Positions 1,589 through 52,000 of a stretch of DNA of 64,000 bases are shown here, piece after piece. Origin of the DNA: Chthonomonadales bacterium (GTDB lineage Bacteria > Armatimonadota > Chthonomonadetes > Chthonomonadales > CAJBBX01); NCBI GenBank assembly GCA_038229495.1, contig JBBROJ010000005.1, positions 5,771 through 69,770 of the forward strand, in the 5' to 3' direction. Numbering within the stretch: position 1 is the stretch's first letter; every line of letters starts with the position of its first letter. Position numbers and translations under genes: made by a program. The notes beneath the pieces were generated by a model. The model searched no databases. It had not been told where the DNA came from and was given only the letters and a program-made list of their open reading frames with translations.

Positions 1589-4500
1589 ATGAAACGTCTA
1601 TCCAGCGTGTTAAGCAGGGCCGCGGCCCTCGTGCTATTTGGCGCGCTAATAGTTAACCGGGCTAGCGCAGTACCGACCATTACAACCCCAGAGGTCCTGG
1701 CGACAACTGTTGCCGGCCTTGAGACCGGTACGGACAATACACAGTTTGTTTTTCGGGCAGACATTACCCGAAGCGGCAATACCGTGGCGCTTATTACAGC
1801 GCCGGGACCTGACGCGCCTCGCGTAGTAATTGATCCCTTCGATCCCGCTAACCCCGAATTCGGCGGCGCATCGACATTTCCCATGGTGCAAATGCCCAAC
1901 ACGAACATGTGGTTTGTATATGTAAGAGGTTCGTTGTTAAACGGCGGATCCAGTGGTTTTGGCAGGCAGCATACGTGGTCTATTCTCGCCCGCGAAGCGC
2001 CGGATACGGGCGGTACGCTCATGAACGGGACCAATGCGGCTCCGAAATCCGGCAATTTAAGGGTCGAACCCTCGTCAGGACCGTCAACCGTCTCAATTAT
2101 CCCCGTTCTCCGCAGGGCCGACGGCTCCTACGTGGACGACAAGAGACTAATTCCTGGGCAGCTCGGAAACGGCCTTCGCCTTGACCCGGAAGACACTACC
2201 GCGCCAAACGACGGCGGCAGCGCGCACTTTTATACTTTCCGCGTCCGCGTGGTCACGCGCGGAGGCCTGCCGCTTCAATACGTCAAGCGACGAGAGACCT
2301 TCGAGTGGCGCGACCATAGATACGATCAGCCGCCGTTTGCCAGCGATGGAACGATAGGTTCTGGATTCCTGGTGCTCAACTACAACACAGGCGTCGATCT
2401 TGCCCTAATCGATCCCGACGGAAATACCCACTTCTGCGCGATGGAGATTGACCCCGAAGCCCCGAACGGCGGGGTCAATCAAGGCGCGGTCTATTTACCC
2501 GACACCCGGTATCCAAACACGTTCGTGCACCCGCAGGGAAGCGGGCAATACAGCGGGGGCGGCGTATATTACAGATACCGCATGCTTCCGACACAGCACA
2601 TTTTCAACTGGAACACGTCACTGCCCGGCGAAGGGCCGTTTACCGCATTTGGCGGGCCCTCTCTGCCGGATTCACTGCCCGCCATTCCGATTGGCTTCAA
2701 CATTGGGCAGAACCCGCTGGCAGTGGGACCCGAGATCATTGGCCGCCCATTCGCGAATGAGTATGTCGGCTTTGCGGGGCAGGACCGCACCACGTCGAGA
2801 GGCAGCACCGCGCCTCCTTTCCCGAACTACACCAACACATTTCATCGCGCGGGGCAGTGGCGTTACTACTTCATTGCTTCAACCGATCTGCGCCCGCCGA
2901 GAAGAGCCGGATTTCCCACAAATGGAGATCAAGCAACCTCATTGTCTCAGGACGCCCTCGTTGATTTATATGGCGCGGATGAAGGTGCGTACGGTTCAGG
3001 ACGAGACAGCGATGACGCCGGAAATCCTGTTTTTAATTTCAACCCTTACGGGCATCCGTTCGTGGGCGTACTCCTTTCGGATGGCGGCTGGACGGACGAT
3101 CTCCCCGAGAATAACCATCCGGGCACACGCGGCAATTCGTTTCGCTCCCGCGTGACGACTAAAACACGCGTACGGTTTATGGTGCGTGTAACGAAGGCCG
3201 ACGAGACACCGCTTCCACTGCAGGCAGTACGCGTATATATCGATGACACCCCGCATTCTATGCAGATACTGAACAGCGAGTTGTATCGAAATGGAAAAAC
3301 GTTTTACTTCGATACAACTTTTGCGAATACCAATCAGGTAGGACAGCATCGCATCTATTTCCAGGTTGATGCGGGAGGGCCCGTTGGAGGCAATTTCAGT
3401 GCTATCTGGCCTCGTCGCGACTGGGGCGGCCCGAACTCCGGGGAGAGCACGGGAGATGGCCGATACGTCGATCCGCAGTCTCTGTTAGCTCCCTACGGTT
3501 TCGTGGATAACACGGCCATCAATTTCGGCACGCTGCAGCGGGTGGGCAAGAACTACCTGCTGGAGCCGCTGGTAAACAGCCGCCCGGTTCTCTCGAATCC
3601 CTCTGTTACGCCGCCATCAGGCTCCGAAGGCCAGCCGTTCACTTTCGAGATTACTTATACCGATGCGGACAATGATCCTCCGGTGAACGCATTTGTTGTC
3701 GTGAACGATCCTAACCAGCCTGAGCAGCAGTACACGATGAATATCGACCCCGCCACGCCGCTGCCGGTCAACTATCGCAATGGCGTCAAGTATCGATTCA
3801 CGGTCACGCTGCCGGTCACGCTCGATACGTCTCACTTCTATTACTTCAAATTCCGCGATAACTGGAACAACTTCCAGTCTTATGGGATTAGCACCATCCG
3901 CCGCGAGTTCGGAGAGTGGGCAACCCTGCCCTCGGGTGATGATAACGGCGTTCCCTCTTCCAAATTTGCGGGCCCGATTATCACGTCCAACAAAAGGAGC
4001 GTTCTGTCCGACGCCGCGTTCTCGTTTAGCGATCCGGCCCAGACATCCGCGACCTTCTACGACTTCCTGATAAAGTACAGCGATGGCGATAATCAGCCGC
4101 CGGCCAACATTAAGTTCTATCTTAGCAGTAATGGCGGAGCCTCTTACGATGCCGGCACCGCGCTCGTCCCTGCGGAAAGCAGCACGAACTACGTCACAGG
4201 TGTCCTTTATCATCTTCCGAATCGGATACAACTAAAAACGTCTGTACCTGTCGGGAGTAATTACCGTTATAAGTTCGTTTCAAGCGACGGAGTGCAAGCG
4301 ACGGATACTACTCTGATCAGAGTAGGATCCGGCCAGCGGGACAATACGGCGCACGAGCTAAAATCGGTTGGCGGCTCGCCCGTAACCTTCGGCGATCCGA
4401 ATGGAACCGCGTTCAATCCCTCTACCAAGGACTGGACCGCCGGGTCGTTCCTACTATATTTGGTGGACGGCAATGACGTGCCGCTAATCACCCAGCCAAC

Positions 4501-14707: not shown

Positions 14708-15763
14708 TTAGCGGAATACGAGCATCAAAGCCATGCCGGCCAGCACGATCAAGGCCGCCATGGTAGCTCCGCATGAGCCGGTTTTCGTTGGCATCTGAGA
14801 ACTGCCGGATCTCAACTTCGCAAGCTCGTCATTTGCCGGCATGCGGGGCTCGGCGACACCAGGAACTGATGCTTCGGGATGCAACGCCGCATGGCACTTC
14901 CAGCACCGGTCCGCCGCGATGGTGTTCTCGCTGCTGCATCGGAAGCAGCGAACCCTGTAGCTCGCCTCCGCCAGGCCGACGGCGCACGACGGGCAGGAGG
15001 TCTCGCCCGCGGAGAAGCCGCGCCTGCACTGCGGGCACCACAAGCGCGGCGCGTAGAGCGGCGGCAACTGGGTAGGTTGGGAAGACTCCTGCGACAAAGG
15101 AGACGGTGGAGACCTGGGCGACATCGGAGACATATGTGACCTGGGAGACTCGGGCGAATCAATCGCCTCCGGTGGCGGCAGCGATTCGGGGGATATAGAT
15201 TCGCGCGGCGCGTCTGCTGAGTTCGACACAGTATCAGATACTAAAGCCGGTATTGTATCAGGTGTGTCAGGGCGCGAATGCTCACTCGAAACGGGTTCGG
15301 CCGGAACCTCCACAAATGACGTCGCGGCCATAGCCGCCGCACTCGTCTCCTGAGCCTCCCCGATCCCCTGAATCGCTCGCAGGCCCGGCTCTCGCGAATC
15401 CAGCCAGCGGCCTCCGCACCGCGCGCAAGTCAACGGCTTAGCGCTCACGACGCCCGAAACAGATGTAATCTCAAGCAGAGCAGTTCGGCACGTTGGGCAG
15501 GGCTTCGGCAGCCCCTCGAACATGCCGGGGCTGGATATTCCGGGGAAAAGCGCGTCGAGCCCGGCGAACGGTGTGCCGGCGGTCAAGGCTATCCGCGCGA
15601 AGTCGGCGGGGTCAATCCAGCATCCGCCGCAGCTCCGGCAGACATGAATCGCCGCGCCGTTCCACTCCACCGCTTCCAGAATCAAACTGCATTGCGGACA
15701 GTTTATCATGTCATTATATCCATGTTGTCTATCAGCCGATTGTACCTCATCAAGCGAGCACAT
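14708..15763 (-). CDS. Multi zinc-ribbon membrane-anchored protein (zf-TFIIB-like repeats, Pro/Ser-rich linker, C-terminal TM)
   Basis: 'CPQCS...CRSCGGCWID' and 'CPTCR...CARCGGRWLD' are TFIIB-type zinc ribbons. Further 'CPQCRR..CPSC' and 'CFRC..CWKC' pairs follow. C-terminal 'ATMAALIVLAGMALMLVF'. Confidence 0.65.
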   Translation of the reverse strand: MCSLDEVQSADRQHGYNDMINCPQCSLILEAVEWNGAAIHVCRSCGGCWIDPADFARIALTAGTPFAGLDALFPGISSPGMFEGLPKPCPTCRTALLEITSVSGVVSAKPLTCARCGGRWLDSREPGLRAIQGIGEAQETSAAAMAATSFVEVPAEPVSSEHSRPDTPDTIPALVSDTVSNSADAPRESISPESLPPPEAIDSPESPRSHMSPMSPRSPPSPLSQESSQPTQLPPLYAPRLWCPQCRRGFSAGETSCPSCAVGLAEASYRVRCFRCSSENTIAADRCWKCHAALHPEASVPGVAEPRMPANDELAKLRSGSSQMPTKTGSCGATMAALIVLAGMALMLVFR

Positions 15764-15780
15764 GAGGACGAATCAATATG

Positions 15781-15870
15781 CTTACCAATGCTTGCCAATG
15801 CTTACGATGCTTACGATGCTTACGATGCTTACGATGCTTACGATGCTTACGATGCTTACGATGCTTACGA
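15781..15870. repeat. Tandem repeat (CTTACGATG) x7 plus partial, preceded by two degenerate 10-mers
   Basis: Read directly: 7 perfect 9-bp units at 15801-15863, a partial unit to 15870, and 'cttaccaatg cttgccaatg' at 15781-15800. It lies in the divergent intergenic region between 15763(-) and 15969(+). Confidence 0.9.
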
Positions 15871-15968
15871 ACCTTGGCAGGCCGGCTGCTTCGCGATTCG
15901 ACAGGATATTGAGCCGGGCGGGGAGAATGGGGAGAATGGGATAGGGAGTAACTGAATCGGAGGCGCTA

Positions 15969-16955
15969 TTGATTATCGCTGCCGCGCCCGGCAGATGTGG
16001 AATTGTCGGCAATCCGACCGACATCTATGGCGGAAGCGTTATAAGTATTTCCACACGCGAGCGCGCCCGGTGTGCGCTTGCGCCATCGGACTGTCTTCGG
16101 GTTTCATCATCGGGAGAAAGCGGTATCTTTACGTCTCCTGCTTGCCTGGCTCTCCGTGGAGGCAAGCTGGATATCGCGCGCGCGGCATTGCAGTGGTTCG
16201 AAATCGATCCCGCGGAGGCGCGATTCTCGCTCGACATCTCTACCGATATTCCGATGCAGGCGGGCATGGCGGGTTCGACGGCGATCGTGGTCACTCTCGT
16301 GGGCGCTCTGGACCGCCATTACGGGTGGAAGCTGCACCCCTGGGCCGTTGCCGAGACCGCCCGGAAGATAGAAAACAGGGTCATGGGCGTGGTCTGCGGG
16401 TTTCAAGACCAGCACATGGCCGTCTTCGGCGGCCTCAACTACATGGATTTTGCGGGCAAGCAGCAGTTGGAGCAGCGTGATGATGAGCCCCTTGCAACGG
16501 TCGAGCCTTTGGCTGCGTTCGCGCCCATTCCTCCACTGCTCACGGCAAATACCGGCGTCCGCCATCATTCTGGGACGGTCCACAAAAGCCCACGTGACCG
16601 GTGGCTGGCCGGCGAGCAGGCGGTAATCGACGCCTATTCCCGAATTGCTGAGATTGCGCGGCTCGGAAAGCGATCTCTGCTGGCGGGGGACTGGAATACA
16701 CTCGGGGCGCTGATGAACGAGAATCACGAGATTGTGGCGAATCTCGGCGGCTCCGGCGAGGCGAACGAGCGGCTCATACGCGCGGCGAGGTCTGCGGGGG
16801 CTTATGGAGCGAAACTGGCAGGCGCGGGCGGCGGCGGAACCATCCTTGCGCTATGTGAAGACATGGAGCGCGTGAGCGCCGCACTGCTGGAAGCCGGGGC
16901 CGCCGCGCTCACTACGCCCTACCCGTCATCCGGCCTGACGATTACGGAAAATTGA
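15969..16955 (+). CDS. GHMP-family sugar or small-molecule kinase
   Basis: 'IPMQAGMAGSTAIVVTLVGAL' is the GHMP motif II (PxGSGLGSSAA-like). 'GAKLAGAGGGGTILAL' is the GHMP C-terminal motif. TTG start 5 nt after GGAGG. Confidence 0.8.
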   Translation: MIIAAAPGRCGIVGNPTDIYGGSVISISTRERARCALAPSDCLRVSSSGESGIFTSPACLALRGGKLDIARAALQWFEIDPAEARFSLDISTDIPMQAGMAGSTAIVVTLVGALDRHYGWKLHPWAVAETARKIENRVMGVVCGFQDQHMAVFGGLNYMDFAGKQQLEQRDDEPLATVEPLAAFAPIPPLLTANTGVRHHSGTVHKSPRDRWLAGEQAVIDAYSRIAEIARLGKRSLLAGDWNTLGALMNENHEIVANLGGSGEANERLIRAARSAGAYGAKLAGAGGGGTILALCEDMERVSAALLEAGAAALTTPYPSSGLTITEN

Positions 16956-16974: not shown

Positions 16975-18258
16975 ATGATTACGCGACTTCGACTTGAAAA
17001 CTTCAAAAGCTTCCGAAACGCCGAATTGAACCTGGGTCCGTTCACGGTGCTCATCGGTGCGAATGCGTCCGGCAAAAGTAATGTTCGCGATGCCTTTCGA
17101 TTTTTGCATGGAGTTGGACGCGGCTACTCCCTTCCCGATATCATAGGTGAGAAACGAGGCGAAGGTGGTGAGAGGGTATGGACCGGTATCCGGGGCGCAA
17201 CTCGTGAAATCACATTCCAGGGAGCGGAACGATTTGTTTTGGAATGCTCGTTTCCGGGGCAACCATATTTTCCTGATCATGGGGTGGTCCAGGAGACTTA
17301 TCGAATCGAAGTTGAGACAGGACAGCCTGGAGAGGTCCCGCGCGTCATTGAAGAATCGTTAGCATTGGATTCCGAACGCGAATATATTTATCGCGCAGAG
17401 CTGCAAGAGAACAAGTCCAAACCTTACAGTGGAACATTAGAATTACAAGTATTCAACGGTAAGAAACAAGAACAACCTTTGACCTTACCGGATTATCAAC
17501 CGGTGATAGCTTCCTTGGAAAAGAGGCTGGTAGACAACGACGATTGGACGCCAGAAGTCCATATGAGTTTGGTGGATGCGCTGGCGGCGCTGGGCTCTAT
17601 CCAATTTATCGAGCTTGACATTCTGGCATTGCGCACCCCATCATTGCCGGGGCAGGATGATTTAGGAGATCAGGGCGAGAATCTATCTTCTGTATTGCTC
17701 GCAATATGCCGGGATTCGAAGAAGAAACGCGCGCTCTTAACATGGATACAAGCGCTAACACCGACAGACGCTATTGACCTAGAATTTCCCGCAGATTTTG
17801 AGGGCAAGGTGCTCGTCCATTTAGTCGAGAGAGGCGGCCAGAGAGTTTCTGCGCATAGCGCATCCGACGGAACGTTACGATTTCTTGGAATACTTGCCGC
17901 GCTAATGCAGCCGCATCCGGTTGCAACGCTCTTTTTCGATGAGATCGACACTGGTATCCATCCAGCCAGACTTCATCTTCTGGTTCAGCTTATCGATCAA
18001 GTGTCCGGGGAACGCAGAACCCAGGTAATCGCTACTACTCATTCATCGACACTGCTTCAGCTGCTTTCTCCACAGATGCTCGAAAACGTTTCATTGACAT
18101 ATCGTCTGGAAGGCCACGAGGAGACATCGATTAAGCGCATTTTGGACATCCCGGATGCTCGTCGGCTTATTCAGGAGCAGGACATACTCGACCTGCATAA
18201 CTCGGGATGGTTTGAAGATGCCGTTACCTTTACCCAGGAAGAAGGCGAAGCAGCGTGA
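16975..18258 (+). CDS. ABC/SMC-like AAA ATPase (AAA_21/AAA_15-type)
   Basis: 'RLRLENFKSFRNAELNLGPFTVLIGANASGKSN' (Walker A), 'SDGTLRFLGILAAL' (signature-like), 'LFFDEIDTGIHP' (Walker B/D-loop), 'IATTHS' (H-loop). GC is lower than the flanks. Confidence 0.85.
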   Translation: MITRLRLENFKSFRNAELNLGPFTVLIGANASGKSNVRDAFRFLHGVGRGYSLPDIIGEKRGEGGERVWTGIRGATREITFQGAERFVLECSFPGQPYFPDHGVVQETYRIEVETGQPGEVPRVIEESLALDSEREYIYRAELQENKSKPYSGTLELQVFNGKKQEQPLTLPDYQPVIASLEKRLVDNDDWTPEVHMSLVDALAALGSIQFIELDILALRTPSLPGQDDLGDQGENLSSVLLAICRDSKKKRALLTWIQALTPTDAIDLEFPADFEGKVLVHLVERGGQRVSAHSASDGTLRFLGILAALMQPHPVATLFFDEIDTGIHPARLHLLVQLIDQVSGERRTQVIATTHSSTLLQLLSPQMLENVSLTYRLEGHEETSIKRILDIPDARRLIQEQDILDLHNSGWFEDAVTFTQEEGEAA

Positions 18259-18842
18259 ATGTGCTGGTCATTCCCGAAGATTCTCCAAAGGACCGGTATG
18301 TTCTCAAACCGATTGTCGAGGCGATGATGAAGGCGACTGGTAAGCCAAGAGCGAACGTAGTCGTTTGTGGTTCTCCGCGCCTCAGGGGAATCGTTCAAGC
18401 ATTAAATCGGGAACGAATTGAAGAGATTATCAACCGTTATAAGGGGATGCATGCGCTTATCCTTCTTATTGTCGACCGGGACGGAGAACCGAGCCGGCGT
18501 TTCGCTTTGAATGATTTGGAAAAGCATGCCGGTAACCTACTAGGGACCGGTAAATGGTTCTTCGCGGAAAACGCCTGGCAAGAGGTTGAAGTGTGGGTAT
18601 TGGCGGGGCTAAAATTGCCTCCCGAATGGGTATGGGAAGATATTCGCTCGGACCGCGACCCCAAAGAGCGGTATTTTAACCTATATGCGTTGCAACGCGG
18701 TGTTTCGTCCGAGCTTGACGGAGGTCGTAAGAGTCTGGCAGAAGAAGCCGCGTTAAACTATTCTCGAATTAGAACGCTCAGTCCCGAAATTGGGGAATTA
18801 GAGAATCGCGTTCGTGACGCCATAAAGGGAGCCGCAACTTGA
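18255..18842 (+). CDS. Small partner protein of the ATPase with an E...DxD (TOPRIM-like, DUF4276-like) pattern
   Basis: The GTG start overlaps the ATPase stop by 4 nt (GTGA). 195 aa. 'VLVIPEDS' early acidic residue and 'LLIVDRDGE' DxD motif. The fold assignment is not verified. Confidence 0.6.
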   Translation: MNVLVIPEDSPKDRYVLKPIVEAMMKATGKPRANVVVCGSPRLRGIVQALNRERIEEIINRYKGMHALILLIVDRDGEPSRRFALNDLEKHAGNLLGTGKWFFAENAWQEVEVWVLAGLKLPPEWVWEDIRSDRDPKERYFNLYALQRGVSSELDGGRKSLAEEAALNYSRIRTLSPEIGELENRVRDAIKGAAT

Positions 18843-20143
18843 AATCGCCTCATCGCCTCATCGCCTCATCGCTTTTCTTTCTTATGTTCTCCTGTCTTTG
18901 CATCTCCATCTGCCGGGCCGACCTGATGGCGGGAGCGTCGAAGGTATCGATCACGCCGGACCCGAACGTGATGCCCTACCAGCTGGGCGGCTACGTTTCG
19001 CCGGAGCGCACGGGCCACAACGCAACCGGGATACACGACACCTGCTATGCCCGCGCGCTCGTCCTATCGGACGGGCCCGCCAAGTGCGCAATCGTTTCGC
19101 TCGACCTCTGCTTCATGCCTGCAAGCGTAAAGACCGCCGTCGTGATTCGCGTGGCGTCGCTCGGCATTCCGGCATCGGGCCTCTTCCTCTCCGCGACGCA
19201 CACCCACTCCGCTCTCGATCCGCTGGCGCTGCACGGCGCGAATACCGTCCCCGCCGGCTCCCTGTCGGCTTATGATTTGAAGCTTGCGGACTGGGTCGCG
19301 GACCGAATCGCGCAGGCTATTACCGAGGCGAACGGAAAGCTTCGACCGGCACGCGCGGGAAGCGGACAGGCGCGGAACCTCGGCCTGAATCGCAACCGTC
19401 GCGGAGAGAAGCTGACCGATGACACTATGATAGCGCTCAAGGTGACGGATGCCGGCGGAAAGCCGCTGGCCGCCATTTTCAATTATGCCGCGCATCCGGT
19501 CTACTACGGCGCGAATATGCTCCAGGTCTCAGGCGATTGGTCCGGCACATTCCAACGACAGATGGAAGCGGTCTATCCCGGCAGCGTAACGCTCTTCCTG
19601 AACGGTGCGGAGGGCGACGCTTCGCCAAACGGCGCGGATGAGGGCACGCCCGCCGAGAAGATCGACACCTACTCCGCCAAGATAAGCCTGGCCGCGCGCC
19701 GCCTATACGACTCCATTGCGGCCAACTCTAGCGGCGGCCTGAAGGCATGGACGCAGGATACGGAGTTGGGCCCGCCAAAGCCGCATCCGTTCTTCTTGCT
19801 CGCCGCCGGCTCGCTTCACGCGACCGCAGCCCAGGCGCGAGAAATGGTGTACCGCATCATGCCCACCCGCTGCGAGGTAAGCTTCGTCCGAATCGGCGAC
19901 GCGCTGTTTATCGGCGTGCCCGGCGAGCCGACCGCGGCGGTGGGCCTTGCAGGGAAAGCGCTGGCCGCCGGAGCGGGAGCAAAGAGCGTTGGAATCGTGG
20001 CCCTCACGAACGGCTGGCTCGGCTACCTCCTCACGCCCGAGCAGTACAAGGCGGGCAAATATGAGGCGACCATGTCCTTCTACGGGGACCAGAGCGGCGA
20101 GAAGATTCTGGCCGGCATAACAGCCGGCCTGAACCCGCGATAA
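18839..20143 (+). CDS. Neutral/alkaline ceramidase-like hydrolase (secreted)
   Basis: Signal peptide 'LIASSLFFLMFSCLCISICRA'. 'AGASKVSITPD...GGY...GIHDTCYARALVL...IVSLDLC...SATHTHSA' matches the neutral ceramidase N-terminal domain pattern. The start is uncertain (TTG 18839 or ATG 18884). Confidence 0.7.
   Translation: MKSPHRLIASSLFFLMFSCLCISICRADLMAGASKVSITPDPNVMPYQLGGYVSPERTGHNATGIHDTCYARALVLSDGPAKCAIVSLDLCFMPASVKTAVVIRVASLGIPASGLFLSATHTHSALDPLALHGANTVPAGSLSAYDLKLADWVADRIAQAITEANGKLRPARAGSGQARNLGLNRNRRGEKLTDDTMIALKVTDAGGKPLAAIFNYAAHPVYYGANMLQVSGDWSGTFQRQMEAVYPGSVTLFLNGAEGDASPNGADEGTPAEKIDTYSAKISLAARRLYDSIAANSSGGLKAWTQDTELGPPKPHPFFLLAAGSLHATAAQAREMVYRIMPTRCEVSFVRIGDALFIGVPGEPTAAVGLAGKALAAGAGAKSVGIVALTNGWLGYLLTPEQYKAGKYEATMSFYGDQSGEKILAGITAGLNPR
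18845..18872. repeat. Tandem octamer (TCGCCTCA) x3.5
   Basis: Read directly. It lies in the first codons of the 18839 ORF (encoding 'SPHRLIAS'). Confidence 0.8.
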
Positions 20144-20172
20144 CATCGAATCAAGCCGTCAGACATTAAACC

Positions 20173-20214
20173 TGACCACTGACCACTGACCACTGACCAC
20201 TGACCACTGACCAC
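20173..20214. repeat. Tandem heptamer (TGACCAC) x6
   Basis: Six perfect units read directly, between the convergent gene ends 20143(+) and 20218(-). Confidence 0.95.
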
Positions 20215-20217
20215 TTC

Positions 20218-21486
20218 TCACGGCTTGGGTGGAATTTGAATGGGAATACGCTGCCCCGCGATTGTCCCCGGCGCAGGATTCCTATCGATGGGTCCGATGC
20301 TCGCCAAACTGTAACGCGTACCCTCCAGCCGCTTGAACTCGAAGGGTTGGCCGTTGAACGGATCGAGCGCCAGCTTGCCAAGCTTCAGATCCGCCAGTCC
20401 CCCGGGCAGACTCCCGTATTCCCACAGGTAATGGCGGATTAAGGCGTGCACACCCAGCATCTGTATCTGAGCCTGCTCCTGCGAATACCGGTCGAGTACC
20501 GTTCCGAGCATTCGGTCCCCCGCCATCAGTTCTGCCAGCACGCCGGCCATGGTGGTTTGGTCAATGGGTGTTGGAGGCTTCCGATTCCAAGCGGGTTGAT
20601 TAAGGCTGTCGATTACCTGATCAAAGCGCGCCGTATTCATCAGCCGCGCCTGGTCGAAGAGGGCAGCCGCGCTATTAGGATTGGCGGTCAGCTCCTGGCG
20701 GACATTCTCAAATTGCTGTTTGCGAAGCGGGGGGTCGTCCTTTTGAGGCTTGATCAGCGTGAGCAGCTTGACAGGGTCCGCCTTGTATTTATTCCATACG
20801 AAGGCCATGGACGCTTTTTCGAATCGGATCAGCGGAATCGCCGGGTCAGGAAGATCGAGCCACGCTCTTACCAGGGCCAATAGCCTGTCGCAGTCCCGCA
20901 TCGAGAGCTGGTCGAGGTGCTCGGACAACTGGCGTATGGCAATTGTGTCGACAGAAATACCGACGAGACCGCTGACGAGCGAATCGGTCTGGGCGGCATA
21001 GCCGAGCTTCAGCACGTCGGCGAGATTATCGAGCGCCTGCGGAACCCGTCCGTCCGCCATGTCAACGTACATCGAAACACCAAGAACACGCGCCAGGGGA
21101 CGAAACGTCATCAGCTCGGGGAAAATAATCTCATCGTCGAGGCTGGCGCGCGGAGATCGGACCGGCTTCTTAAGTCCCGCGCGGAGCGTGTCTAGTGCGC
21201 TCCGAACAAGCGGGTCCGACACGAGGCGTCTCTTGACCTGCAGCGTGGCAGGCTGGTCGCTGCCTATGGTGTTATTGTAATCCCGCCAAACGGGGGCGTT
21301 CGCAAGGATATCCCCGGCGCGCACCATCTCCTCATAACCGTTCTGCCCGGTCGGATTCGCGAATAACTTTGCGAAGTTGTTGGTAGGCAGCGGTTCGGGC
21401 GCTTGCGAAGCAGCTGGGGAGCGCGGGGCGCAGAGTGCGCAGGCAGCTCCCGCGCATAGGACTGCTCGATTCAGGATTCCGACCAT
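20218..21486 (-). CDS. Secreted hypothetical protein
   Basis: 422-aa ORF with leader 'AVLCAGAACALCAPRSPAAS'. No motif recognised. Codon usage looks like the neighbouring genes. Confidence 0.6.
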   Translation of the reverse strand: MVGILNRAVLCAGAACALCAPRSPAASQAPEPLPTNNFAKLFANPTGQNGYEEMVRAGDILANAPVWRDYNNTIGSDQPATLQVKRRLVSDPLVRSALDTLRAGLKKPVRSPRASLDDEIIFPELMTFRPLARVLGVSMYVDMADGRVPQALDNLADVLKLGYAAQTDSLVSGLVGISVDTIAIRQLSEHLDQLSMRDCDRLLALVRAWLDLPDPAIPLIRFEKASMAFVWNKYKADPVKLLTLIKPQKDDPPLRKQQFENVRQELTANPNSAAALFDQARLMNTARFDQVIDSLNQPAWNRKPPTPIDQTTMAGVLAELMAGDRMLGTVLDRYSQEQAQIQMLGVHALIRHYLWEYGSLPGGLADLKLGKLALDPFNGQPFEFKRLEGTRYSLASIGPIDRNPAPGTIAGQRIPIQIPPKP

Positions 21487-50176: not shown

Positions 50177-50480
50177 AATAACCTCACAAGTGGAAATAGT
50201 TGACCGCGCCCGGCCAAAGCCATATTACAGGTGGCGCAACTCCACAACTATTCTAGCACGACCACTTCGTTTGAATGCTCCTACCGGACACATGAAGCGA
50301 AAGCCATCTCCGAAGAGATGACTTTACTTCCTGTCCGCCGCATGGAACACGGTCGTCGCTTGTTCACTCGTGTTGTTGCCCTGAGCACTGGTTTGTGGCG
50401 GGAAGACAGGAATCTGAAGACTAATCGCACAATACAGCGTATATTAGGTCACATAATTGTGATTCTGAAGGGGATAATTG

Positions 50481-51386
50481 ATGAGCAAAGTCAGTGAATA
50501 TGTGAACGACTCTCGCGTGGACTACTTACATCCTGCGCTCGAATTCCATGAGATGCGAGATGTACATATGAAATGCGAAGACAACCTTCACTTCATGCGC
50601 AATCTGACAAGCGATTCAATGAAAATGGTTGTAACTTCCCCACCCTACAACATCGGAAAGGCGTATGAAAAGAAGCATACGTTAGAAAACTATATCGCTG
50701 ATCAGGCACAGGTAATCTCGGAGTGCGTTCGACTATTGCACCCGGAGGGCTCATTGTGCTGGCAGGTGGGCAACCACATTGGTAGTGACGGTGAAGTCTT
50801 TCCACTCGACATTGTTCTCTATGATACATTTCGTTCGCACAGGCTAAAGCTCCGCAACCGCATTGTGTGGCATTTTGAACACGGCCTCCACTGCTCGAAG
50901 CGTTTTTCAGGACGATATGAAACGATTATGTGGTTCACCAAGGGCGACCAATACACGTTCAACCTAGATCCGATTCGAGTCCCTTCGAAATATCCAGACA
51001 AGCGGCACTTCAAGGGACCGCGAAAAGGCGAGTTGTCTGGAAACCCACTGGGCAAGAATCCTGGTGACGTTTGGATAATACCGAATGTCAAATCTAACCA
51101 TGTTGAGAAGACCAACCATCCTTGTCAATTCCCCGTGGAGTTAGTTGAACGGCTGGTACTATCGATGACCAACCCGTGCGATCTGGTCCTTGACCCATAT
51201 ATGGGCGTCGGCAGTTCGCTAATTGCGGCGGTGAAACAAGGGCGGATTGCCTACGGTTGCGATACTGTTGAGGAATATGTAAGCATTGCGAGGCAACGGC
51301 TTGTCGGTCTGCACAATGGTACTCTCCGAACAAGGCCAATGGGGAAAGCAGTATATGATCCCAAATTGCCGAACGGTGGCCATTGA
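50481..51386 (+). CDS. Beta-class DNA N4-cytosine/N6-adenine methyltransferase (type II R-M)
   Basis: 'MVVTSPPYNIGK' (motif IV, SPPY) precedes 'DLVLDPYMGVGSSLIAA' (motif I), which is the beta-class order. Spot GC ~43% at 50521-50580. Confidence 0.85.
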   Translation: MSKVSEYVNDSRVDYLHPALEFHEMRDVHMKCEDNLHFMRNLTSDSMKMVVTSPPYNIGKAYEKKHTLENYIADQAQVISECVRLLHPEGSLCWQVGNHIGSDGEVFPLDIVLYDTFRSHRLKLRNRIVWHFEHGLHCSKRFSGRYETIMWFTKGDQYTFNLDPIRVPSKYPDKRHFKGPRKGELSGNPLGKNPGDVWIIPNVKSNHVEKTNHPCQFPVELVERLVLSMTNPCDLVLDPYMGVGSSLIAAVKQGRIAYGCDTVEEYVSIARQRLVGLHNGTLRTRPMGKAVYDPKLPNGGH

Positions 51387-52000
51387 TGAGAATCGTTGAG
51401 TATTATTCGCATCTCAATGGATACGAGCATATTATTGTTCACCAGCCTGGTTTGTGGTCAGAAATCAAGGATGTTGTTGCTGCCGTAGATGCTGTCGAAT
51501 GTAAGACGAAGGTATGTAAAGAGAAAGGATCAAAATTCGGCACGCTTCTGTTTGACCCAGGCGAAATGAATAAGCGATTCAAAAAGGAGCTTGAGGATCG
51601 AGACTGGCACGAATCTCGTACTTCCTACTTTGTAACGTCTGACCACCGGCTGATCCGTAAGACTATGAATATGTCGAAGGAGGAACAACGAAAGGAAATT
51701 GAGACGGCAGGAAAGACACCAATCTACTCGTACAATCAAACCGACTTCGTTAAGAACCGCATTGAGATCGAAGTCCAGTTTGGGAAATACTTCTCCGTAG
51801 CATACGACCTGTTCGTAAAGCACATGGCGTTTTTTATTGGAGACGTGATCGATGTTGGTGTTGAAATCCTACCCATGAAGGAAATGCAACATGAAATGTC
51901 ATCCGGCCCTCCCTATTATGAAGGAGAGTTATATAACCTGCTTCGTCAAGGCCGAAGTACGCCCGCAGTTCCACTCGTGGTTATTGGAATCGCTCCGTAG
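51386..52000 (+). CDS. Type II restriction endonuclease, BamHI/BglII-family-like
   Basis: The start overlaps the methylase stop (TGATG). 'DFVKNRIEIEVQFGKYFSVAYDLF...IDVGVEILPMK' resembles the BglII/BamHI catalytic core (E-x-E...). Assignment is from memory. Confidence 0.6.
   Translation: MRIVEYYSHLNGYEHIIVHQPGLWSEIKDVVAAVDAVECKTKVCKEKGSKFGTLLFDPGEMNKRFKKELEDRDWHESRTSYFVTSDHRLIRKTMNMSKEEQRKEIETAGKTPIYSYNQTDFVKNRIEIEVQFGKYFSVAYDLFVKHMAFFIGDVIDVGVEILPMKEMQHEMSSGPPYYEGELYNLLRQGRSTPAVPLVVIGIAP

Follow-up and report, generated by a model that had tools for sequence, protein, structure and literature searches.

A stretch of 64,000 nucleotides from a Chthonomonadales bacterium of the phylum Armatimonadota (assembly GCA_038229495.1, contig JBBROJ010000005.1, positions 5,771 to 69,770 of the forward strand), referred to below as the window, carries two overlapping genes which encode an ATPase of the ATP-binding cassette (ABC) type and a small acidic-motif protein. 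The pair is best explained as a horizontally transferred "ABC ATPase + Toprim nuclease" module, and probably serves in defence against phages or other mobile elements; its assignment to the class as such can be made with fair confidence. The same class takes in OLD, GajA of Gabija, the AriA/AriB pair of PARIS, AbiL, the Mad3/Mad4 pair of MADS and the candidate system HEC-01. The family to which the window pair belongs is large, some 700 clusters at 50% identity spread over at least eight phyla, and there is slightly less than an even chance that it represents a distinct, autonomous anti-phage system missed by PADLOC v2, Pfam and NCBIfam.

The ATPase, its small partner and their linkage

A sequence-only reading of this DNA had described two open reading frames (ORFs) of 427 and 195 aa, and quoted short motifs from both products; ORFs and motifs are present in the translations exactly as described. 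The pair is not the outcome of chance, because both proteins have hundreds of conserved homologues. The larger protein had been taken for an ATPase of the defence-associated AAA_21/AAA_15 ABC type, and Pfam, PADLOC and Foldseek all agree. In Pfam, AAA_21 is matched at 7.7e-37 (128 bits, cutoff 27), AAA_15 at 1e-18 (68.6 bits, cutoff 32.1), and SMC_N is matched as well. The best PADLOC model is PDC-M07A (6.9e-70), which covers residues 1-417 of 427; further matches include HEC-01A (1.8e-41, several models), AbiLi (1.4e-26), mad3 (4e-23) and AriA models, the latter matches stemming from generic models of AAA_21/AAA_15 type. The AlphaFold (AF2) model of the ATPase has a pLDDT score (predicted local distance difference test) of 86.3. 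Foldseek places PtuA, known from Septu and from retrons Ec78, Ec83 and Eco7, at the top of its matches (9nnb_D, 2.4e-14; also 8eea), and retrieves SMC and Rad50 heads and the OLD nuclease of Thermus scotoductus (6p74, 2.3e-12), the matches to these four groups lying at E 1e-14 to 1e-11. Similarly, the ATPase profile is related to the ATPase half of phage P2 Old with an hhalign probability of 92%. All catalytic motifs (Table 1) are conserved, and the protein is an intact SMC/OLD/PtuA-like ABC ATPase, for which the role of sensor or regulator subunit is proposed. The two halves of the ATPase head are separated by a beta-rich insert, in which mean column conservation among 70 homologues drops to 0.35-0.47, against 0.7-0.9 in the ATPase core; the model draws strands at residues 86-95, 105-114, 123-131, 136-145 and 153-159. 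Variable inserts have been described in HEC and other defence ABC ATPases (Payne et al., bioRxiv 10.1101/2024.01.29.577857), and the insert of the window protein is a candidate region for sensing the trigger or binding the partner.

The small protein belongs, as far as its sequence tells, to a large conserved family that forms a divergent branch of DUF4276. Its homologues at 50-61% identity number 484, and an exhaustive search of a library clustered at 50% identity retrieved 729 representatives at E<=1e-3, 189 of them at E<=1e-30. Two alignments were drawn from the family, a close one (A1) and a divergent one (A3, 31-45% identity), and 40 close and 40 divergent members were scanned against the domain and defence models. 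DUF4276 is matched by 20 of the 40 divergent members (best 9.8e-9) and by 4 of the 40 close relatives (best E 0.016). HEC-01B is matched by 13 divergent members (best 1e-6) and, weakly, by three close ones; among the divergent members four match RloB (E>=0.025) and two AbiLii (E>=0.0095), all weakly. No member of either set of 40 matches DUF4435 or AriB in Pfam or PADLOC. Since the relatives, and not the window protein itself, match DUF4276, the relation is transitive and holds at the level of the superfamily.

Conservation within the family points to a catalytic site of the Toprim type. Columns invariant in A1 include E8, D74-R75-D76, R81, E105, W108-Q109-E110, E112 and W114, together with A107; in A3, E8, D13, P19 and E112 are invariant, and D74, D76, R81, A107, E110 and W114 are shared by 90% or more of the members. 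The cluster of acidic residues between E105 and W114 is typical of DUF4276/RloB-like proteins. The AlphaFold (AF2) model of the small protein is confident (pLDDT 94.2; predicted template modelling score, pTM, 0.91), and exhibits a beta1-alpha1-beta2-alpha2-beta3-alpha3-beta4 core, with strands at residues 2-7, 34-37, 68-74 and 101-107, followed by a helical C-terminal part. As strands 1 and 3 of the model span residues 2-7 and 68-74, E8 would follow beta1 and the DRD motif would end beta3, i.e. both would sit at Toprim positions. The predicted fold thereby shows the pattern of the Toprim core: four strands alternating with helices, a glutamate after beta1 and DxD after beta3. DUF4276 (Mad4 of MADS) and RloB have been classed in the Toprim superfamily, with a catalytic glutamate and a DxD motif after beta3 (2025 NAR, PMC12065111), and HEC-01B has been reported to have a TOPRIM-like structure sharing the metal site of BpOLD (Payne et al., bioRxiv 10.1101/2024.01.29.577857). 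The small protein is thus a probable Toprim-type nuclease, judging by family conservation and the predicted model, and is proposed to be the effector of the pair.

Searches that start from the window protein alone are less generous. Phmmer and hmmsearch brought up no useful match among the PDB sequences. Among the top 50 Foldseek matches of the model in PDB there is no OLD, GajA, AriB or other Toprim protein; the best ones are generic flavodoxin-like or three-layer alpha/beta folds (phosphatases, lumazine synthase, SGNH hydrolases), with template modelling (TM) scores of 0.3-0.4. BFVD yields an RloB-like protein as its top match (prob 0.97, E 0.013), with DnaG-like primases ranking lower at E 0.4-0.5; none of these values is significant. 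The early suggestion that the small gene encodes a TOPRIM-like partner with an E...DxD signature is supported as far as computation goes: E8 and D74-x-D76 fall at Toprim positions, and the link to DUF4276 is provided by relatives, but similarity to a solved Toprim structure is missing. The comparison of its AlphaFold model with OLD/TOPRIM structures, which the same reading had proposed as a check, did not confirm it, the confident model giving no significant match in PDB.

The two genes travel together. In about 78 of 80 retrieved loci, wherever upstream sequence is present, an ATPase gene lies immediately upstream of the small gene, and the encoded ATPases are 42-50% identical. Stop and start codons overlap by 4 nt in 65 of 77 homologous loci. 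The pairwise divergences of ATPases and small proteins are correlated in a mirror-tree comparison (r = 0.76, Mantel p = 0.001). ATPase and small protein make up one self-contained module. In the window the junction reads GCA GCG TGA, and the GTGA overlap noticed earlier is there; the start of the small protein, MNVLVIPED, lines up with Met1 of all the homologues. Read from the sequence, the 4-nt overlap amounts to translational coupling of the two genes.

Table 1. Positions, in the window, of the two genes, their conserved motifs and the flanking genes (A1, close alignment; A3, divergent alignment of the small-protein family)
Feature	Position	Strand	Remarks
SMC/OLD/PtuA-like AAA_21/AAA_15 ABC-type ATPase gene	16975..18258	+	427 aa, ATG start
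Walker A (P-loop) GANASGKSN, G28-A-N-A-S-G-K34-S-N36	17056..17082	+	G28, N30, A31, G33, K34, S35 and N36 invariant in 70 homologues
Beta-rich variable insert, residues ~81-200	17215..17574	+	Between N- and C-terminal halves of the ATPase head
ABC signature SASDGTLRFL, S295-L304	17857..17886	+	All ten residues invariant in 70 homologues
Walker B/D-loop LFFDEIDTGIHP, L319-F-F-D322-E323-I-D325	17929..17949	+	F320 and E323 invariant
H-loop ATTHS, A353-T-T-H356-S357	18031..18045	+	H356 invariant
GTGA stop/start overlap	18255..18258	+	GTG 18255-18257, TGA 18256-18258
DUF4276-like, putative Toprim-type small protein gene	18255..18842	+	195 aa, GTG start
E8 (VIPEDS, motif IPED), right after beta1	18276..18278	+	Putative Toprim catalytic glutamate; invariant in A1 and A3
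D74-R75-D76 (IVDRDGE), end of beta3	18474..18482	+	Putative Toprim DxD metal-binding motif; invariant in A1, >=90% in A3
E105-N-A-W-Q-E110-V-E112-V-W114, end of beta4 and next helix	18567..18596	+	Second acidic cluster, from conservation
GHMP kinase gene GHMP1	15969..16955	+	Upstream flank, outside the module, marks the insertion site; Pfam GHMP_kinases_N/C
Ceramidase-like gene	18839..20143	+	Downstream flank, outside the module, marks the insertion site; Pfam Ceramidase_alk 1.6e-27

Comparison with described systems

Payne et al. (bioRxiv 10.1101/2024.01.29.577857) described one broad ATPase family which occurs in two cassettes with different partners, HEC-01 (Hma-embedded candidate 01, FAM_00005>>FAM_00291, ABC ATPase + TOPRIM) and PDC-M07 (FAM_00005>>FAM_01367). 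The window pair resembles both. It shares with HEC-01 the two-gene architecture, in which the gene of an AAA_21-type ABC ATPase precedes that of a Toprim protein, DUF4276-like and some 200 aa long; the ATPase matches HEC-01A, the divergent relatives of the small protein match HEC-01B, and members of the family lie between the Hma (helicase-methylase-ATPase) genes HmaB and HmaC in four loci. In contrast, HEC-01B models fail almost entirely to match the small protein of the window and the 39 relatives closest to it, PDC-M07A fits the window ATPase far better than HEC-01A does, and the window copy sits in no defence system and has no Hma genes nearby.

PDC-M07, a name found in the literature only in a supplementary table, supplies the best profile for the window ATPase, which is about 27% identical to a bona fide PDC-M07A, and is likewise a coupled two-gene cassette. 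The bona fide system resides on the Photobacterium plasmid pAQU1 in the order hsdM-hsdS-A-B-hsdR, where A scores 1e-206, and B scores 9e-75 against its own model. Identity of the window pair with PDC-M07 was considered and rejected: the genuine PDC-M07B (161 aa; L082:8292-8777, Photobacterium damselae pAQU1, WP_014386674.1) compares to the window family with an hhalign probability of 2.8%, and no PDC-M07B model is matched by the 80 members scanned, i.e. the window protein and 79 relatives. PDC-M07B starts with ICIIDTSVFLN and matches PIN_12 below threshold (E 0.0054). Given this weak match, PDC-M07 may be an ABC ATPase + PIN-like pair housed in a type I restriction-modification (R-M) operon. 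As PDC-M07B is unrelated to the window small protein, the same ATPase chassis carries a different effector in the two cassettes.

The remaining systems are more distant. Mad3 and Mad4 of MADS are an AAA_21-type ATPase and a DUF4276-type Toprim protein (PMC12065111), and the window ATPase matches mad3; yet the NCBIfam model MAD3 is hit at 7e-24 with 84.7 bits, far below its cutoff of 420, and no other mad gene, such as the methyltransferase, is found near the window pair, which therefore is not MADS. PARIS also combines a separate ABC ATPase, AriA, with an effector of the Toprim superfamily, AriB, and offers the model whose mechanism is best understood: upon a trigger, the nuclease is freed from the ATPase scaffold and transfer RNA (tRNA) is cleaved (PMC11464382). 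With about 35 kDa, or about 300 aa, AriB is larger than the window partner of 195 aa, and it belongs to DUF4435 while the partner is DUF4276-like; lacking a DUF4435 partner, the pair is not PARIS. No AriA structure appears in the top 50 Foldseek matches of the ATPase model.

OLD and GajA have an ATPase domain homologous to that of the window, and the proposed, here putative, Toprim chemistry of E plus DxD is the same. In the OLD proteins of phage P2, Thermus scotoductus and Burkholderia, as in GajA of Gabija, the Toprim domain is fused to the ATPase, while the window has two genes; no GajB-like (UvrD-like) helicase is adjacent to the pair, and the small protein has neither sequence nor Foldseek similarity to the Toprim domain of OLD. 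Because the domains are unfused and a helicase is missing, the pair is neither OLD nor Gabija. AbiL (AbiLi plus the RloB-like AbiLii), and the RloA/RloB pairs of type I R-M loci, join an ATPase to a small partner of the Toprim superfamily too, but the matches of family members to RloB and AbiLii all lie above E = 0.009, none comes from the window protein, and the link to DUF4276 is far stronger. PtuA of Septu and retrons is the nearest solved structure to the ATPase model, and Septu follows the same logic of a defence pair made of an ATPase and a nuclease; nevertheless PtuA is only 12-15% identical, with TM 0.4-0.5, and its partner PtuB is an HNH protein, unlike the Toprim-like partner in the window.

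The initial description of the cassette as an OLD/PARIS/AbiL-like module is thus right as to the broad class, and does not hold if any of OLD, PARIS, Gabija or AbiL is meant in the strict sense. The window module is composed of a PDC-M07A-like ATPase and a DUF4276/HEC-01B-like effector, in the architecture of HEC-01, Mad3/Mad4 and AbiL, and is a sub-family which no present defence-annotation model captures. The caution that the exact family was unassigned, and might be an uncharacterised variant, was well placed, as the small protein escapes every model of PADLOC, Pfam and NCBIfam. Of the Pfam families named for checking, AAA_21 and AAA_15 are found in the ATPase; DUF4276, RloB and DUF4435 give nothing for the small protein of the window.

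Composition, distribution and insertion site

Acquisition of the cassette by horizontal transfer, proposed from the sequence at the outset, is supported by its base composition, by empty sites in close relatives, by the patchy distribution among phyla and by copies on plasmids. The low GC noted by eye, 38% at 17401-17460, was measured as 0.383. The cassette as a whole has a GC of 0.503 and a GC at third codon positions (GC3) of 0.49-0.50; GC3 averages 0.71 +/- 0.055 in the 33 other genes of the window, which sets the cassette at z ~ -3.9. Only 1.2% of same-sized stretches are equally GC-poor, and those which do not overlap the cassette all fall in one other patch, described below.

The family is patchily spread across many phyla. 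Among ~185,000 species genomes 184 relatives were confirmed, uniformly at 50-58% identity, in Planctomycetota, Cyanobacteriota, Chloroflexota, Myxococcota, Acidobacteriota, Desulfobacterota, Pseudomonadota (Gammaproteobacteria), Armatimonadota and others. The immediate flanks (n=86) match 111 different Pfam families, and clustering of 330 neighbour proteins taken from 43 loci yields 291 clusters, with no conserved neighbours. The neighbourhood analysis called for in the sequence-only reading thus turned out in its favour, as neighbours are variable and a conserved housekeeping synteny is not seen. Across phyla only the Hma defence system recurs as a context: of the 43 loci, four (L013, L016, L029, L066) have the pair flanked by HmaB and HmaC, and a fifth (L075) has it beside them. 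The flanking genes of 1030 and 1100 aa were also considered as type I R-M subunits, and this was rejected, as they are HmaB and HmaC. In about 88% of the surveyed loci no Hma or R-M gene is adjacent. Plasmids carry the pair in Brasilonema (pBOCT1), near an integrase gene, and in Rathayibacter, downstream of relaxase genes; the small protein of the latter matches the family with an hhalign probability of 99.9%. No phage-borne copy was found in 50,697 phage records. In three Oscillatoria/Laspinema loci (L048, L076, L080) the pair lies directly downstream of conserved genes of 546 and 435 aa. RuBisCO small-subunit and RuBisCO-activase domains are matched by three of the neighbours in a scan that gives counts only; judged by size, these neighbours are probably the products of the 435-aa genes. 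Such neighbours indicate that the cassette can land beside core metabolic genes.

In the window the cassette is wedged, as originally noted, between a GHMP kinase gene, from which it is separated by a spacer of 19 nt, and a ceramidase-like gene, which overlaps the small gene by 4 nt, provided that its TTG start is correct. The closest relatives of the flanking kinase include those of Chthonomonadaceae/Chthonomonadales metagenome-assembled genomes, and the site was compared among relatives. Two loci, L086 and L090, whose kinases are 75% and 68% identical to that of the window, respectively, have the order GHMP1-GHMP2-ceramidase, without the cassette. A third, on the P0274 contig (72%), has GHMP1-ceramidase, with neither GHMP2 nor the cassette. 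A fourth, L087 (72%), reads GHMP1-GHMP2-cassette-ceramidase, with the small gene frameshifted near residue 68, and the window reads GHMP1-cassette-ceramidase. The ceramidase-like gene of the window is 63-69% identical to the orthologues of L086 and L087. GHMP2 directly follows GHMP1 in relatives, and is about 80% identical among them (compared in L085, L086, L087, L089 and L090); no GHMP2 is found within the 64 kb of the window, where the cassette holds its position.

The filled site of L087, a metagenome sequence of the Joint Genome Institute (JGI), has the cassette at 2150-3983, between GHMP2 and the ceramidase-like gene. Its ATPase is 52.5% identical to that of the window, as opposed to 72% and 63% for the flanks, and reaches a higher identity, 58-60%, with cyanobacterial and deltaproteobacterial copies; yet a neighbour-joining tree pairs L087 with the window. 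The split small gene of L087 is either a pseudogene or an assembly error, and the two cassettes may derive either from a single ancestral insertion or from independent ones. The arrangements in relatives, together with the divergence of the L087 ATPase, imply that the site gained, lost or exchanged the cassette more than once.

No direct or inverted flanking repeats, tRNA or integrase bound the cassette in the surrounding DNA of the window. A scan of the region for RNA elements and transcription signals gave no Rfam match and no terminator between the genes; an excess of promoter-like signals at the cassette probably just reflects its lower GC. The other neighbours in the window (DUF1054, a zinc-ribbon protein, adenylate cyclase, tyrosyl-tRNA synthetase, an ABC transporter) make up an ordinary neighbourhood. 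Short tandem repeats occur around the flanking genes. A 9-nt unit, ATGCTTACG, is perfectly repeated in ~9-10 copies at 15789-15887, where the zinc-ribbon gene (14708..15763, minus strand) and the GHMP kinase gene (15969, plus strand) diverge from a shared intergenic region. The unit ATCGCCTC is repeated 3.5 times at 18844-18872, straight after the stop codon of the small gene and within the ceramidase ORF's putative 5' end; because of this location, the true start of the ceramidase gene may be the ATG at 18884. A third repeat, CTGACCA in about 6 copies at 20172-20220, follows the stop codon of the ceramidase-like gene, which is thus bracketed by repeats.

The other GC-poor patch (50478-52000, plus strand; GC 0.47-0.51), ~32 kb from the cassette, consists of a compact type II R-M pair with a 4-nt overlap. 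ORF 50478..51386 encodes a DNA methyltransferase of RsrI/MboIIA type (1.3e-32 to M.RsrI), and ORF 51383..52000 a BstYI-like restriction endonuclease (3e-84 to BstYI). BstYI recognizes RGATCY. The pair is a second, independent, horizontally acquired defence cassette.

Defence and its alternatives

Several observations weigh against the view that the window pair is a working defence module with a Toprim nuclease. The small protein of the window matches no model of Pfam (none at E<=1), PADLOC, NCBIfam or PHROGs; Foldseek finds nothing for its model in PDB at E<=1e-3, the best value being 0.015, and the profile of its family compares to P2 Old with an hhalign probability of 0.06%, i.e. without similarity. 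As neither Foldseek nor the comparison with P2 Old connects it to a solved Toprim protein, the Toprim assignment is indirect. The window copy lies outside any defence island, inside an apparent metabolic operon which leaves no room for a terminator of its own, and the L087 copy, at the same site, has a frameshifted small gene. Both window proteins form long branches, and positions of the small protein which are nearly invariant in the family, albeit non-catalytic, are altered (F10S, Q14R, C176S); given the long branches and these changes, relaxed selection may have acted on the window copy. Lastly, the single HEC-01 representative assayed protected against none of the phages tried (bioRxiv 10.1101/2024.01.29.577857).

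Three other explanations were weighed. The pair could be a selfish addiction module of the toxin-antitoxin (TA) kind, in which a nuclease toxin is checked by the ATPase and the genes persist because their loss is harmful, not because they protect from phages. The label given by Pfam to AAA_21, "putative AbiEii toxin, Type IV TA system", is in keeping with this, as are the tight coupling of the genes, the plasmid copies beside relaxase genes, the solitary location of most copies away from defence islands, and the failure of HEC-01 to protect. Addiction is hard to reconcile with a cassette so easily lost, as seen from the empty sites in close relatives and the one frameshifted copy, or with its repeated embedding in Hma defence operons of unrelated phyla; moreover, addiction and abortive-infection roles can coexist. 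All considered, this explanation is unlikely.

Quite unlikely is also that the pair is an accessory of DNA-modification systems such as Hma, type I R-M or MADS-like ones, works only along with them, for instance as a backup when the host system is inhibited, and survives in the window as an orphan of little or no function, possibly decaying. The location between HmaB and HmaC in 4 of 43 loci, the embedding of the sister ATPase clade PDC-M07 in type I R-M, the precedent of PrrC, the long branch and the substituted near-invariant positions in the window, and the frameshift in L087 speak for such dependence. Against it, Hma and R-M genes are missing next to the pair in about 88% of the surveyed loci, neither window ORF is disrupted or has lost a catalytic residue, and the type II R-M system of the window is 32 kb off, not next to the pair. 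Very unlikely, finally, is that the small protein lacks nuclease activity and acts as an adaptor of Rossmann-like fold or a partner that binds a ligand, and that the pair takes part in DNA repair, in SMC-like housekeeping or in regulation tied to the flanking GHMP-kinase/ceramidase operon: the generic alpha/beta folds retrieved from PDB at TM of only 0.3-0.4, the lack of similarity to the Toprim of P2 Old and the operon-like packing (19-nt spacer, 4-nt overlap) would fit, but the operon context is specific to the window and absent in close relatives, neighbours are unrelated across 43 loci, invariant acidic residues fall exactly at Toprim positions, divergent members are linked by sequence to DUF4276, HEC-01B and RloB, and the base composition is foreign.

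If the pair is an ABC ATPase + Toprim nuclease module deployed against phages, a mode of action may be outlined by analogy with PARIS, OLD, Gabija and Septu. An ATPase oligomer would keep the small nuclease inactive and serve as the sensor, the variable insert being the likely recognition surface. A phage cue, or the loss of a host function, would shift the complex to another ATP-dependent state. Release or activation of the metal-dependent Toprim nuclease would follow, and it would cut nucleic acid; the target could be tRNA, as for PARIS, or DNA, as for OLD and Gabija. Cleavage would keep the phage from replicating, and the infected cell may be sacrificed in the process.

The module of the window adds a so far unrecognised sub-family to a kind of system that is already known. 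Published work covers its class, architecture and likely mechanism, and the understanding of such systems is left unchanged. What emerges is a gap in annotation: a widespread and conserved two-gene module is invisible to defence tools, as its effector falls below every library model, and its ATPase gets assigned to PDC-M07, a candidate system whose real partner is a different protein. Hidden Markov models built from the A1 and A3 alignments would close this gap. In the lineage of the window, the GHMP-kinase/ceramidase site is dynamic, being filled, empty or decayed in different relatives. As HEC-01 tested negative, a stand-alone ATPase + DUF4276 pair would for the first time be backed by functional evidence if the module were validated experimentally. 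On a broader scale, PDC-M07 and the module of the window represent a natural effector swap on one ABC-ATPase chassis, a PIN-like partner in the former and a Toprim-like partner in the latter. Should the family prove to be an autonomous system, the swap might be exploited to study sensing by the ATPase insert apart from the effector.

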